A DNA stretch of 64,000 nt from Patescibacteria group bacterium (GCA_040390125.1 JAZJYZ010000001.1:163698-227697), one strand, 5' to 3'. Shown: positions 3,750 to 38,141, numbered from the stretch's first letter. The notes: generated from the letters alone by a model not told the origin. Translations and numbers: made by a program.

Positions 3750-5486
3750 ATGGTCGTTCCCGACGCACAATTAAAGACATTTGTGATTGATTCTGGGTTG
3801 GTATCCCGGAAAGATTTTGAATCTGCAGAGAAAACTGCAAAAGATACAGCACAGCCCTTGAGTGACACGCTGGTTTCTGCCGGTATTTTGAGCGAAGACG
3901 ATCTTCGCCGGATGCAGGCACACATACTCGGGATTCCGTTTATATCTCTTTCAGGAATCAAGATAGATTTTGAAGTACTCTCGCTCATTCCGGAGCCTAT
4001 TGCCCGCAAACACAATGTCATTGCATATAAGAAGACAGACGACTCTCTTGAAGTGGCAATGCTCTACACAAGCGACTTGGAGCCTTTGAATTTCATAAAG
4101 AAGAAAATAGGGTTGAAAATTCTACCTCGCCTGACCGACACTGCATCTCTAAAGAGTGCACTCTTGCAGTATCAGAAGTCTCTAAAGGAAGAATTTGGCG
4201 ACATTATTCAAGGTGCTTCGCAGTCGATTACAGATACTGAGAGTTTGGACACCGCAGGCTTAAAGAAGCTTGCTGATGATGTGCCGGTCATTAAGGTGGT
4301 GGACACTCTGCTTCGGCATGCGGTAGTGCAGGGTGCATCGGACATCCATATTGAGCCATTAGAAGAGATGCTCCTGGTGCGGTATCGAATCGACGGGGTA
4401 TTACATGATGCGATGGAGTTGCCAAAAAATATTGCAGCGGGTGTGACGGCACGCATTAAGGTGCTGGCAAACTTAAAACTTGATGAGAAACGTCTTCCGC
4501 AAGATGGTCGCTTTAAGATGGAAGCCGACAAAGAGAGAGTGTCGCTCCGTGTATCTGTGATGCCTACGTATTTTGGAGAAAAAACAGTGATGCGTCTTCT
4601 TCGTGAAGGCGGGGGAGGATTCACACTCGAATCGTTAGGGTTTCATGGTGTTGCACTTGAGCGTGTACATGCAGCATCAAAACAATCGACAGGTATGATT
4701 TTGATGACGGGACCAACGGGAAGTGGAAAGACGACGACCTTGTACACCATTTTGGATATTTTGAACACGCCCGACGTAAATATTTCAACCATTGAAGATC
4801 CTATTGAATATCAAATGCCACGTGTAAACCAGACACAAGTGAGGGCCGACATTGGTTTCACTTTTGCCTCAGGCTTACGCTCTCTTGTGCGTCAAGACCC
4901 GGACATCATCATGGTTGGAGAAATTCGTGACACTGAAACTGCGTCACTTGCAATCAACGCAGCCTTGACGGGACATCTTGTCCTCTCAACCCTTCATACT
5001 AATTCTGCAGCGGCGGCAATACCACGTCTCGTCGACATGGAGGCAGAGCCGTTTCTCTTGGTTTCATCACTTAGAGTGATTATCGGTCAGCGGTTAGTGC
5101 GACGGTTAGCTTCTGATCGTATTGAATACACATTGTCTGAAGAAGAGATTCAGCAGTTGAAAGCCACCATTGATATTGATCGTGTTCTTGCTGTTCTAAA
5201 AGAAGAAAAACACATCCCTACCGAGGCAACCATTAAAGAGATTCCATTCTTTAAGCCGAAAGAAAACGGAGTCTCCGTTGATGGGTACTCTGGGCGTATT
5301 GGTATCCACGAAGTTTTGCCGGTAACTCACGAAATACGAGAGCTTATTTTGAAGCGAGTGTCGGCGGATGACATTGAAGTGCAAGCAAAGCATGAAGGCA
5401 TGCTGACAATGGTGGAGGATGGAATTTTTAAGGCGGCGACAGGAATTACAACGATTGAAGAAGTCCTCCGAGTTATTAGCGAGTAG
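3750..5486 (+). CDS. pilB: Type IV pilus assembly ATPase PilB/GspE family
   Basis: Walker A GPTGSGKTTT; 578 aa; followed by pilC and pilin genes. Confidence 0.9.
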   Translation: MVVPDAQLKTFVIDSGLVSRKDFESAEKTAKDTAQPLSDTLVSAGILSEDDLRRMQAHILGIPFISLSGIKIDFEVLSLIPEPIARKHNVIAYKKTDDSLEVAMLYTSDLEPLNFIKKKIGLKILPRLTDTASLKSALLQYQKSLKEEFGDIIQGASQSITDTESLDTAGLKKLADDVPVIKVVDTLLRHAVVQGASDIHIEPLEEMLLVRYRIDGVLHDAMELPKNIAAGVTARIKVLANLKLDEKRLPQDGRFKMEADKERVSLRVSVMPTYFGEKTVMRLLREGGGGFTLESLGFHGVALERVHAASKQSTGMILMTGPTGSGKTTTLYTILDILNTPDVNISTIEDPIEYQMPRVNQTQVRADIGFTFASGLRSLVRQDPDIIMVGEIRDTETASLAINAALTGHLVLSTLHTNSAAAAIPRLVDMEAEPFLLVSSLRVIIGQRLVRRLASDRIEYTLSEEEIQQLKATIDIDRVLAVLKEEKHIPTEATIKEIPFFKPKENGVSVDGYSGRIGIHEVLPVTHEIRELILKRVSADDIEVQAKHEGMLTMVEDGIFKAATGITTIEEVLRVISE

Positions 5487-5576
5487 AATGTAGAAAGTAG
5501 AGAAGTAAACACACTATGCATATTCTTTCTACCTTCCACTTTCTACCTTCCACTTTCTACCTTCCATATACTCACT

Positions 5577-14520: not shown

Positions 14521-14623
14521 AGGTTAGGTGTCAGCTGCCAGCTTTCAGGTTCCAGCTTCTCTTAATTCAAAGCTGAAAGCTGGAACCTGAAAGCTTCCTC
14601 TCTAAAATGTTACCATGTCCTAA

Positions 14624-32374: not shown

Positions 32375-32782
32375 ATGGCACTTTTCAACACAAAAAAGAA
32401 TACGAAGAAGGCGAAGGAATCGATTCCAGAATCGAAGTCTGTTCTCCCTGAAAGCTCTAAGCCAAAAGCCAAAAGCTCTTCTGAACGTCCTTCTGCTCTC
32501 GCTGAGTATGCCAATGTTTTGGTACGCCCTCGCATTACCGAGAAAGCAGCAAACATGACCGCACAAGGTGTGTATACATTTGATATTCGCAAGACCGCAA
32601 CAAAGAAGGATGTTGCTAAGGCGGTACACGCACTCTACAAAGTGATGCCAATTAAAGTGAATGTCGTAAATACACCAGCAAAACGTGTGCAGATGAGAAA
32701 GAAGCGTGGTTTTGGTAAGACTGCTGCATCAAGAAAAGCTCTTGTATTTTTAAAGAAAGGTGACACTATCCGTTTCTCATAA
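32375..32782 (+). CDS. rplW: 50S ribosomal protein L23 with a roughly 40-aa K/S/P-rich N-terminal extension
   Basis: L23 core VLVRPRITEKA...; position between rplD and rplB. Confidence 0.88.
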   Translation: MALFNTKKNTKKAKESIPESKSVLPESSKPKAKSSSERPSALAEYANVLVRPRITEKAANMTAQGVYTFDIRKTATKKDVAKAVHALYKVMPIKVNVVNTPAKRVQMRKKRGFGKTAASRKALVFLKKGDTIRFS

Positions 32783-32800: not shown

Positions 32801-33664
32801 ATGTCTTCTACACGAAATTACAAAGCACGCACCGCATCTACTCGTCACATGAGTGTGATTCGTTACCGGGGTGTTGTGACGACCAGCAAGCCTCTAAAGT
32901 CTTTGACGAAGGGTAAGAAAAACCGTGCAGGCCGAAACTCTTTTGGTCGTATTACAACTCGCCACCAAGGAGGCGGACACAAACAGCAGGTGCGCATGGT
33001 TGATTTTATGTTCGCTAAAAAGAACATCTGGGGCAAGGTTGAGCACATTGAATACGATCCCACTCGCTCAGGTTTCATTGCTCGCATTGTAGACATAGAC
33101 GGAGAGCGCCGATACATACTTGCACCGAAGTCTTTGAAAGTTGACGATAAAGTCATCACTTCTGAAACTGCCCCAATCACTCCTGGAAATCGTCTTCCTT
33201 TGAAGAATATTCCAATTGGAACATTCATCTACAACATTGAGATTCATGCAAACGGGGGTGCGAAGATTGCTCGAAGTGCTGGCAATCATGCCGAGCTTAT
33301 TGCACTTGACGCTGGGTACGCTCAAATCAAGCTCCCTTCAACTGAAGTTCGCAAGGTGGTAGACACTGCATGGGCATCCATTGGCGAGGTTTCAAACGAT
33401 GCACATCATCTTGTCATCATTGGTAAAGCAGGTCGTTCTAGACACATGGGTATCCGCCCAACGGTACGTGGTACTGCTATGAACCCAGTTGACCATCCAC
33501 ACGGAGGAGGTGAAGGCCGTCAGGGTCGTGGACACAGAAGGCAACGCACTATGTGGGGTAAGCCATCAGGAAAGGGTCAAAAGACACGAACTCCAAAGAA
33601 ATACTCCAATCCGTTCATTGTTTCTCGTCGCCGTGTTGGAAAGAAGAGAACAAAGGGAGCGTAA
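32801..33664 (+). CDS. rplB: 50S ribosomal protein L2
   Basis: 287-aa ORF reading as L2 (Gly/His/Arg-rich C-terminal half ...GRNSFGRITTRHQGGGHKQ... and ...DHPHGGGEGRQGRGHRRQ...). Confidence 0.95.
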   Translation: MSSTRNYKARTASTRHMSVIRYRGVVTTSKPLKSLTKGKKNRAGRNSFGRITTRHQGGGHKQQVRMVDFMFAKKNIWGKVEHIEYDPTRSGFIARIVDIDGERRYILAPKSLKVDDKVITSETAPITPGNRLPLKNIPIGTFIYNIEIHANGGAKIARSAGNHAELIALDAGYAQIKLPSTEVRKVVDTAWASIGEVSNDAHHLVIIGKAGRSRHMGIRPTVRGTAMNPVDHPHGGGEGRQGRGHRRQRTMWGKPSGKGQKTRTPKKYSNPFIVSRRRVGKKRTKGA

Positions 33665-33673
33665 ATTTCAGAA

Positions 33674-33709
33674 TAAAAAATCCCCCGCCATATATGGCGG
33701 GGGATTTTT
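33674..33709. terminator. Strong palindromic terminator aaaaaatcccccgcca tatatggcgggggatttttta, right after rplB
   Basis: 12-bp GC-rich stem flanked by A/T runs. Confidence 0.7.
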
Positions 33710-36896: not shown

Positions 36897-36926
36897 CTTT
36901 GTGCAACCTCCGGAGGTTGCACAAAG
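36897..36926. repeat. REP-like perfect palindrome ctttgtgcaacctcc|ggaggttgcacaaag (left flank of the transposase gene)
   Basis: The exact palindrome is shared with 37648-37689. Confidence 0.65.
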
Positions 36927-36945
36927 AGTGTGGTAGCCTAAATTG

Positions 36946-37638
36946 ATGCCTAAAGCATTACCAAAGTCGCGAGAAGGAATTGCTCCGGGGGAGTATTATC
37001 ATATTGTTAATCGTGGCGCTCATCGACAGACGATCTTTAAAGAAAAAAGCGACTGGCGCCGATTTCTTTTTAATGTGTTGTTTCTTCAATCTCCACATCA
37101 ATTTAAAAACATACATCGGATTACGGAAAGCTTTCTTCCAGATATTGGCTTTGCTGTCCCTAACGAAGATATCGAGGCTATCATAGAGAGTCGTTTTGTA
37201 GAAGTGGTTTGTTTTTGTCTCATGTCAAACCATTTTCACTTACTGGTCAAAGAAACTACTGAAGGCGGAATCGCACGCTATATGCAGCGTGTCTCTGACG
37301 GATACACAAAATATTACAATGTTAAATATGAAGCTACTGGGCATGTATTTCAGGGTCCATACAAAGCGGTGCATGTAAAAACAGACTCTCAGCTTCTCTA
37401 CACATCCGCCTATATTCATAGAAATCCTCGTGACATACGAGAGTGGTCAGGGAAGGAGTTTGAATACCCGTGGTCGTCACTCCAAGATTTTACTGACGCA
37501 AATCGATGGGGAGGACTCATAGTGCCCGAGATTGTTACGGGTCAGTTTTCCGTCACACCTAAAAGTAATTATGCTGATTTTGTTAAAACAACAACCGCCA
37601 AACTTTTAGCTGAGGAGCTTGAAGGCATCATTCTATAA
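36946..37638 (+). CDS. IS200-like / REP-associated tyrosine (Y1, HuH) transposase
   Basis: YHIVNRG..., HuH motif CLMSNHFHLLVKE, catalytic-Tyr region YTSAYIHRNP; 230 aa. Confidence 0.75.
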   Translation: MPKALPKSREGIAPGEYYHIVNRGAHRQTIFKEKSDWRRFLFNVLFLQSPHQFKNIHRITESFLPDIGFAVPNEDIEAIIESRFVEVVCFCLMSNHFHLLVKETTEGGIARYMQRVSDGYTKYYNVKYEATGHVFQGPYKAVHVKTDSQLLYTSAYIHRNPRDIREWSGKEFEYPWSSLQDFTDANRWGGLIVPEIVTGQFSVTPKSNYADFVKTTTAKLLAEELEGIIL

Positions 37639-37647
37639 ATTTCCTAC

Positions 37648-37689
37648 AACGCCATTTGTGCAACCTCCGGAGGTTGCACAAATGGCGTT
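37648..37689. repeat. REP-like perfect 42-nt palindrome aacgccatttgtgcaacctcc|ggaggttgcacaaatggcgtt (right flank)
   Basis: Perfect 21-bp arms; the core is identical to 36897-36926. Confidence 0.65.
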
Positions 37690-37781
37690 GACAGGAGGCG
37701 GGTGATTGGGATAGTATGCCCAAAGCTCGTGAGGGCGCATTTTTCTTAGTGCGTACCTGTTTGGGTAATACATACAACACA

Positions 37782-38141
37782 ATGGCTCGCTCACTTAAAA
37801 AAGGTCCCTATGTTGCACACAAGCTTCTAAAGAAGATTGATGGCAAGAAGCCTGCAACGACAGCCCCTATAAAGACATGGGCACGTGCATCTGAAATCAG
37901 CCCTGAAATGGTTGGCTTTGTTTTTCTTGTTCATAACGGTAAGGATTTTCCAGAAGTATTTGTTACAGAGGAAATGGTAGGACACCGTCTTGGTGAATTT
38001 TCGGCGACAACGAAATTCACTCGTCACGGAGGTAAGATGCAGAAAGAACTTGAGCAGAAGAAGAAAGAGTCTGAAATTGCAGCAGCACAAGCAGCCAAGG
38101 CTCCAGCAGACGGAAAAACTAAAGCTCCGGCAAAAAAGTAA
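37782..38141 (+). CDS. rpsS: 30S ribosomal protein S19 with a lysine/alanine-rich C-terminal extension
   Basis: [19 protein letters not shown]...; start at ATG 37782 within the longer track ORF. Confidence 0.9.

Follow-up and report, generated by a model that had tools for sequence, protein, structure and literature searches.

The stretch of DNA analyzed here, 64,000 nucleotides (nt) from a Patescibacteria group bacterium (GCA_040390125.1, JAZJYZ010000001.1:163698-227697), is referred to below as the window, and counts of the palindrome and of the Y1 gene in the window refer to these 64 kb. In the window the ribosomal S10 operon is interrupted between rplB and rpsS. The genes follow each other in the order rplW, rplB, a giant gene for a PKD/CARDB repeat protein, a small unit containing a Y1 HUH gene, rpsS and rplV, the last of which was identified 3' of rpsS by Pfam (Table 1). 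The Y1 unit appears to be built as a hairpin, a promoter, the Y1 gene and a second hairpin. This arrangement is reminiscent of REPtrons, which consist of a gene for a REP-associated tyrosine transposase (RAYT, or TnpA_REP) and the repetitive extragenic palindromes (REPs) flanking it, and which are represented by the systems of E. coli, Stenotrophomonas and Marinomonas (Bertels groups 2/3, Quentin subclasses 2.2/2.5; REPtrons are defined as in PMC8266576 and PMC5581495, and the Y-x3-NP class as in PMC6006769). The analysis makes it probable that the unit is a REPtron-like system, in which a Y1 HUH endonuclease, probably domesticated, is accompanied by cognate hairpins in low copy number, and that this system has become fixed in the gap between rplB and rpsS, splitting the S10 operon.

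Table 1. Features of the rplB-rpsS region of the window.
Feature	Position	Strand	Basis or remark
rplW	32375-32782		Pfam
rplB	32801-33664		Pfam
Terminator-like GC palindrome AAAAATCCCCCGCCATATATGGCGGGGGATTTTT, 34 nt, 17-nt arms	33676-33709		Directly 3' of rplB; A/T runs on both sides
Gene for giant PKD/CARDB repeat protein, secreted, 1047 aa	33728-36871	+	Pfam: PKD_4 60.6 bits, CARDB weak
Upstream hairpin, 30-nt perfect palindrome, core TTGTGCAACCTCCGGAGGTTGCACAA	36897-36926		Maximal-palindrome search
Putative extended -10 (TGgTAGCCT) of the Y1 gene, 6 nt 5' of the ATG	36931-36939	+	Read from the sequence
Y1 HUH (TnpA_REP/RAYT-like) gene, 230 aa	36946-37638	+	Pfam, motifs, structure model
Downstream hairpin, 44-nt perfect palindrome, same 26-nt core	37647-37690		Outer arm overlaps the rpsS -35 by 3 nt
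rpsS promoter, TTGACA-18-TAGTAT	37688-37717	+	Promoter scan, 10/12 matches
rpsS 5' leader: AAGCTCG..GGGC element and small GC hairpin, then T-run	37718-37781	+
rpsS (S19), first gene of the downstream operon half, true ATG at 37782	37782-38141	+	Ribosomal_S19, 106.6 bits

The open reading frame (ORF) of the Y1 gene, for which an alternative TTG start exists at position 36943, carries the motifs MSNHFHLLV (N95-H96-F97-H98) and YIHRNP (Y156-P161), and its product of 230 amino acids (aa) matches the Pfam family Y1_Tnp (PF01797) with 39.1 bits against a cutoff of 23 (E=9e-10). In 40 homologues of 52-81% identity, no variation is seen at residues N95, H96, H98, Y156, H158 and P161, and little or none in a long C-terminal stretch (YPWSS / NRWGGL / SNYxDF, which in the window reads YPWSS...NRWGGL...SNYADF). 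The invariance of the catalytic residues together with that of the C-terminal stretch shows that the protein is under purifying selection and that its active site is intact. The AlphaFold2 model of the protein (pLDDT 84.9) was compared with the PDB using Foldseek. The best match is 4er8, the complex of E. coli TnpA_REP with a REP hairpin (E=2e-6, TM 0.70), and it is followed by the TnpA structures of IS608 and ISDra2. A profile search of the PDB returned 2xm3 (E=0.005) and 4er8 (E=0.018), a single-sequence search of the PDB gave spurious matches only, and the protein has no match in PHROGs. The presence of Y-x3-NP instead of Y-x3-Q and the best structural match to 4er8 support the assignment of the protein to the Y1 HUH enzymes of the RAYT/TnpA_REP type. 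By its motifs (NH[FY]H, FQ, Y-x3-NP and SS) and its size, it falls into class 2 of Quentin et al. 2018, with subclass 2.1 as the nearest subclass.

More than 1100 homologues were found, essentially all of them labelled Patescibacteria, Paceibacteria, Kaiserbacteria or Parcubacteria, and nearly every homologue cluster was seen on just 1-3 contigs. Among 1.84 billion cluster representatives at 50% identity there are 89 matches at E<=1e-30 and 6385 at E<=1e-10. The window-type Y1 proteins are a compact family within the large Y1 superfamily.

The catalytic HUH/Tyr fold and the hairpins that border the coding sequence are also features of the IS200/IS605 insertion sequences (IS) such as IS608 and ISDra2, and the unit could be taken for an active element of this type that has recently transposed into the operon, possibly bringing the giant gene with it. 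In some members of the family the two hairpins are indeed in direct orientation, as peel-and-paste transposition needs. However, IS200/IS605 transposases have Y-x3-Q and a core of 130-150 aa, whereas the window protein has YIHRNP and, at 230 aa, a conserved C-terminal region. IS200/IS605 elements are multicopy and near-identical, often carry tnpB, and have imperfect hairpins of the same orientation, none of which is seen here: the Y1 gene is present in one copy in the window, nearly all homologue clusters are confined to so few contigs, no tnpB is found in any of the locus gene tables examined, and in many loci the two hairpins face in opposite directions. The distribution of the unit among relatives, described below, points the same way.

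Two exact copies of the palindrome core, TTGTGCAACCTCCGGAGGTTGCACAA, are present in the window, at 36899-36924 and 37656-37681. No third site is present in the 64 kb at up to 3 mismatches (shuffled sequences are expected to give 0), and the looser pattern GTGCAAC-N2-16-GTTGCAC finds the same two sites and no others. When folded as single-stranded DNA, the upstream hairpin has an energy of -14.2 kcal/mol (z -5.5) and the downstream hairpin of -28.1 kcal/mol (z -12.1). The first-pass annotation had described a 230-aa ORF with the Y1 hallmarks NHFHLL and YIHRNP, lying between the giant repeat gene and rpsS and flanked on both sides by the same palindrome. Both motifs, the gene context and the upstream palindrome at 36897-36926 were as described, and the profile match to Y1_Tnp agrees with them. 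The downstream palindrome is also there, although it had been given as 42 nt at 37648-37689 and is in fact one nucleotide longer at either end.

The association of the hairpins with the gene was examined in a set of 80 metagenomic loci containing relatives at 32-68% identity and in loci fetched otherwise. Only hairpins with perfect arms of at least 9 bp were accepted, and this strictness, together with the shortness of many contigs, depresses the counts. Even so, a perfect hairpin lies on both sides of the Y1 gene in 24 of 72 distinct loci and on one side in a further 32. Family members located far from ribosomal genes are flanked by hairpins as well. The upstream hairpin is typically 20-50 nt from the Y1 gene and the downstream one 10-45 nt. 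The stem has 9-22 bp and in the closer members resembles TGTnnAAC...GTTnnACA, and yCGr is a frequent loop. In loci with an asymmetric loop, the relative orientation of the two hairpins can be determined, and both direct and inverted pairs occur. Within a genome, the two hairpin copies are identical or differ by compensated changes, while the cores vary between genomes. Such concerted change fits co-evolution of the protein with its hairpin. The hairpins thus belong with the Y1 gene, and the layout is that of a REPtron as described for TnpA_REP (PMC8266576). This bears out the REP-flanked, RAYT-like architecture proposed by the first-pass annotation, to which the class 2 motifs and the match to 4er8 also conform. 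Some non-ribosomal members of the family have nested or tandem downstream hairpins, or hairpins of a second type (L083:3608-3730, L105:1848-1890, L066:2932-2968), which hints at several hairpin families or at local multiplication beside the gene.

The palindromes might instead be ordinary terminators or insulators, or hairpins that stabilize RNA, and have nothing to do with the Y1 protein. They are placed at gene ends, between transcription units, their stems are very stable, and REPs elsewhere in bacteria affect mRNA stability (PMC8266576). Nevertheless, they have no T-run and are not called by a terminator scan, whereas the genuine terminator-like hairpins of the window are flanked by A/T runs. 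Nor would terminators be expected to be identical within a genome and different in core between genomes, or to accompany the Y1 gene in unrelated contexts. We regard this explanation as extremely improbable. One of the hairpins with A/T runs is the GC palindrome directly 3' of rplB, which looks like a bidirectional terminator closing the upstream half of the split operon; a simple terminator scan did not call it. A search of Rfam with the flanking hairpins gave sub-threshold noise only.

A GTAG/CTAC tetranucleotide is found near both copies in the window, 8 nt from the core and in mirror orientation, and was considered as a guide motif. It is not conserved in the close relatives L001, L013, L019 and L031 or across the family and was rejected; the GTAG of the window is taken as a coincidence with the -10 element.

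The dispersal of the hairpin was studied with the pattern TTGNNCAACNNCCGGNNGTTGNNCAA, which was run on 185,579 species genomes, the window's own genome, with its contig of 748,944 bp, not being among them. The pattern misses variants with other centers or outer bases, and since it is so narrow, the counts of solo copies are lower bounds. In three close metagenome-assembled genomes, whose Y1 proteins are 87-92% identical to that of the window and whose core is the same, copies were detected at the Y1 locus only and no solo copy was detected. The complete 721 kb genome CP174359.1 has three copies, two flanking and one solo. One solo copy is present in the CAYNOO genome, to which locus L001 belongs, and four, arranged as two doublets, in the JAZJXK genome, to which locus L117 belongs. 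Apart from CP174359.1, the related genomes scanned with this one pattern have 0-4 solo copies each. The solo sites are intergenic throughout. Matches in unrelated phyla, about 16 against about 9 expected by chance, were disregarded. The hairpin family is dispersed but tiny, with 2-6 copies per genome, far below the abundance of classical REPs. A dispersed REP-like family, which the first-pass annotation had envisaged, is therefore only weakly supported: no additional copy was detected in the window or in the three close genomes, and the solo copies, 1-4 per genome, come from three genomes.

The comparison with REPtrons thus has two sides. In both cases a Y1 HUH enzyme with Y-x3-NP, best matched in structure by 4er8, is encoded by a gene bracketed by copies of a cognate palindrome. 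In both, the gene is apparently present in a single copy and descends vertically in the manner of a housekeeping gene, the protein and the hairpin co-vary, and there is no evidence of mobility. Unlike REPtrons, which have tens to hundreds of palindromes spread over the genome, the window-type units have the small numbers given above, and the 64 kb contain no copy apart from the flanking two. Their palindromes are perfect, without a bulge, reach 44 nt and have no conserved 5' GTAG. The protein has a distinct conserved C-terminal domain within its 230 aa and scores below the NCBIfam REP_Tyr_transpos cutoff, the host is a Patescibacterium with a genome of about 0.7 Mb, and the unit occupies a fixed place inside the S10 operon.

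This place is shared by many relatives. A Y1 gene lies between rplB (L2) and rpsS (S19) in 19 independent loci, where the Y1 identity is 54-92%, and every context sampled from the top of the homologue list is the same rplB-rpsS slot. Two of these loci, L119 and L120, were found by starting from L2 and hence were not chosen for the presence of Y1. Moreover, 22 of the 120 best L2 homologues share the exact size of the longest contig with one of the 120 best Y1 homologues. The more distant members (L042-L116) are found in varied gene contexts. In a neighbor-joining tree of 87 proteins, the 15 ribosomal-locus members included form one clade that is nested in the larger family. A Mantel test of Y1 identity against the identity of L22, S3 and L16 taken together gives r=0.70 (p=4e-4), or r=0.84 when L117, the single outlier among 12 loci, is left out. 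The GC content of the Y1 gene is equal to that of its neighbors. The fixed slot, the monophyly, the co-divergence and the local GC content together imply that the slot was colonized once and that the gene has since been inherited mostly vertically. One Y1 copy in the window, one clade and a Mantel coefficient of 0.70-0.84 with one outlier also agree with the single-copy, vertical character of REPtron genes.

Two arrangements are seen in the slot. In the first, the Y1 gene is on the strand opposite to L2 and S19 and the giant gene is missing (L002, L003, L004, L006, L008, L037, L039, L040, L119 and L120); the partial loci L041 and L046 have Y1 in the same orientation. In the second, L2, the giant gene, Y1 and S19 are co-directional (the window, L001, L013, L018/19, L031 and L117). 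The first arrangement is the commoner among the sampled loci. In L038, a co-directional Y1 gene occurs without the giant gene. The orientation of Y1 has flipped at least twice in the slot. The giant gene is found in only six of the 19 ribosomal loci (the window, L001, L013, L019, L031 and L117), being absent from L002-L008, L037-L040, L119 and L120, and it evolves fast, with 44-59% identity where L2 is 95% identical. It is lineage-specific cargo of the gap between rplB and Y1 and not part of the ancestral unit. The gap takes variable cargo: in L118:3241-7090 it contains at least three genes of unknown function, the first of which is related to the giant gene, and in L003:6690-7370 a non-coding stretch of about 700 nt in which terminator-like hairpins recur.

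The occupation of one slot in 19 loci and the co-divergence with ribosomal proteins are contrary to recent transposition, as is the lack of the giant gene in the commoner arrangement. A recently arrived IS element is thus very improbable, and this explanation can be regarded as already largely refuted. The proposals of the first-pass annotation that the unit is of IS200/IS605 type and arrived by transposition accordingly find no support, the former on motif, size, copy number and tnpB and the latter on the slot, the single clade, the co-divergence and the local GC content; its suggestion that the giant gene came along with the unit is contradicted by the commoner arrangement and by L038.

The downstream hairpin lies beside the promoter of rpsS. 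The site TTGACA-18-TAGTAT is the best promoter-like site of the region, and a TTGAC[AG]-17/18-TAnnnT sequence 5' of rpsS is conserved in 14 of 14 ribosomal loci checked. In 17 of 18 loci a hairpin overlaps the -35 of this promoter or is 0-12 nt from it; in the remaining one (L037) it is 34 nt away. In several lineages the outer arm of the palindrome includes the first bases of the -35, and the outer sequences are lineage-specific (ATGGCGTT, GGGGCGTT, ATGAGA and CATTTGTG). Such lineage-specific growth of the arms would be the expected outcome of intrastrand template switching at the palindrome. Between the promoter and the start of rpsS, a conserved AAGCTCGnnAGGGC element is present in the leader of the window, L001, L002, L004, L013, L018, L037, L117, L119 and L120, and in the same loci it is accompanied by a small GC hairpin and a T-run. 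No Rfam family matches the leader. Its sequence is attenuator-like, and it could be an undescribed ribosomal protein leader of the rpsS-rplV-rpsC sub-operon.

The promoter of the Y1 gene seems to be associated with the upstream hairpin in a similar manner. In many family members, a TATAAT-like hexamer follows the upstream hairpin by 0-3 nt. In the window and its close relatives an extended -10 takes the place of this hexamer, and TAG(C/T)CT-N6-ATG is retained in L013, L019 and L031; the promoter scan made no call at this putative -10 in the window. If these elements have been read correctly, the Y1 promoter would overlap or abut the upstream hairpin, and the Y1 mRNA would be leaderless or nearly so.

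These positions raise the possibility that the Y1 protein has been exapted as a regulator, which binds the palindrome as a duplex or in extruded form and controls its own promoter and that of rpsS. Such a function is compatible with a REPtron-like origin of the unit and would tie the expression of ribosomal proteins to some state of the DNA. Besides the proximity of the hairpin to the rpsS -35, it would account for the -10-like hexamer immediately after the upstream hairpin, which would place the Y1 -35 inside the hairpin, and for those loci of the opposite-strand arrangement where a single perfect hairpin is found, as this hairpin lies between two divergent promoters. The long retention of the gene in genomes of about 0.7 Mb is also in its favor. 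On the other hand, the invariant HUH and tyrosine residues imply that catalysis is still selected, which a pure repressor does not need, the non-ribosomal members have the same layout of hairpin and promoter without a ribosomal gene, and the adjacency may be a by-product of compaction. We therefore hold an exapted regulator to be unlikely. A related proposal is that in a major Patescibacteria lineage the RAYT-like enzyme, catalytically intact, and its hairpin are now a fixed, host-serving part of the ribosomal protein cluster, with the hairpin as a control site shared by both promoters, that of the enzyme and that of rpsS and the ribosomal genes downstream of it; this is possible, if on the unlikely side.

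Several observations weigh against a REPtron-like system fixed in the slot. The conserved 5' GTAG of characterized REPs (defined in PMC8266576) is missing from the hairpins, which are also not abundant. The protein is only 10-17% identical to proteins of solved structure, so that hairpin binding and cleavage are deduced from distant homologues. Its score with NCBIfam REP_Tyr_transpos (NF047646) is 30.1 bits against a cutoff of 80, which is below the level of this equivalog. The closeness of hairpin and promoter could merely reflect the compaction of intergenic regions. For subclass 2.1, the closest one by motifs, an absence of nearby REPs has been reported. Finally, in L117 the ribosomal proteins are about 92% identical to those of the window and the Y1 protein is only 58% identical.

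Subclass 2.1 of TnpA_Y1 (Quentin et al. 2018) corresponds to RAYT Group 1 of Bertels et al. 2017, or TIRYT. Its published characteristics are the motifs NH[YF]H, FQ, Y[IV]HxNP and SS, a protein size with a median of 238 aa and few copies per genome (PMC6006769, Table 1), and the window family agrees with this table in motifs and size, the comparison being one of motifs only. Subclass 2.1 genes are described as having no REP-like sequences nearby and a C-terminal helix-turn-helix (HTH) domain (Bac_DnaA_C, HTH_23 or HTH_28; PMC6006769), whereas here hairpins flank the gene and Pfam detects no HTH in the protein at E<=1. The terminal inverted repeat consensus of subclass 2.1/TIRYT, GGGG[AT][CG]A[CG], is not shown by the flanks of the Y1 gene.

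The divergence of L117 deserves separate consideration. Its Y1 protein is at most 64% identical to any sampled member, and its flanking core, TGTGCAAGGCCCGGGCCTTGCACA, is unlike the four solo hairpins of that genome; one of these four departs from the core of the window by a single mismatch (L117:2940-3730, L034:5405-5486 and L036:3719-3798). As the Y1 protein has diverged far more than its ribosomal neighbors, inheritance has not been purely vertical; the resident gene may have been replaced or have undergone a burst of divergence. The same discrepancy would be explained if the unit were a site-specific, homing-like element or an exchanged cassette that enters the rplB-rpsS gap repeatedly, the synteny then being the result of targeting and not of descent. 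The variable orientation among lineages would follow, and the highly conserved ribosomal genes on both sides would supply homology arms for replacement. Repeated entry is difficult to reconcile, however, with the monophyly of the ribosomal-locus members and with the strong Mantel correlation that remains when L117, the only outlier, is set aside, and no conserved target motif was found apart from the hairpin. We consider such a cassette distinctly unlikely and return to a REPtron-like unit fixed by descent.

With this interpretation, the history and the operation of the unit can be outlined as follows. One subfamily of a larger Patescibacteria family would have become fixed between rplB and rpsS in the ancestor of a broad clade of the Paceibacteria/Kaiserbacteria type, and since then would have been passed on mostly vertically. 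Its fixation would have split the S10 operon into two transcription units, of which the rpsS half is predicted to have its own strong promoter beside the hairpin. The Y1 protein, by homology, would bind single-stranded DNA at its cognate hairpin and would cleave and rejoin the strand beside this hairpin, with the metal ion held by H96 and H98 and a 5'-phosphotyrosine formed on Y156. As each of the flanking palindromes is its own inverted repeat, recombination between them could plausibly flip the orientation of the unit. The giant PKD gene is an example of the cargo that the gap on the side of rplB has accepted.

RAYT-like genes with palindromes on either side have been known before. Searches of the literature for the placement of a Y1 gene between rplB and rpsS in the Candidate Phyla Radiation (CPR) returned nothing relevant. 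The window-type Y1 subfamily, its pairing with perfect, GTAG-less hairpins of very low copy number, its occurrence in Patescibacteria with genomes of about 0.7 Mb and its fixed place in the S10 operon beside the rpsS promoter appear to be undescribed in the searchable literature. How RAYTs serve their hosts is an open question in the field. Here the catalytic residues have been kept in spite of deep divergence, in genomes that are among the smallest of all bacteria and inside the most conserved bacterial operon. Since they have been kept next to a promoter that drives half of that operon, selfish persistence alone is hard to credit. With one gene and so few hairpins, the system is small enough that its specificity and its regulatory role are open to simple tests. 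If the hairpin were indeed a shared control site, the unit would be the first RAYT-type system whose cellular role can be identified, and it would offer a minimal REP population of 2-6 copies for the study of this role. Annotation pipelines that assume rplB and rpsS to be contiguous in CPR bacteria, or that flag the Y1 gene as mobile, misread the locus.

Two further inverted repeats were noted in intergenic regions of the window, at 14526-14595 and 5477-5559, consisting of AGCTTTCAGGTTCCAGCTT with 18 nt between the arms and of a 25-nt pair with 33 nt between the arms; neither is related to the Y1 hairpins in sequence. The S19 protein of the window has 119 aa, of which the Pfam domain spans residues 3-82, and ends in a Lys/Ala-rich C-terminal extension; among relatives its size ranges from 94 to 154 aa.

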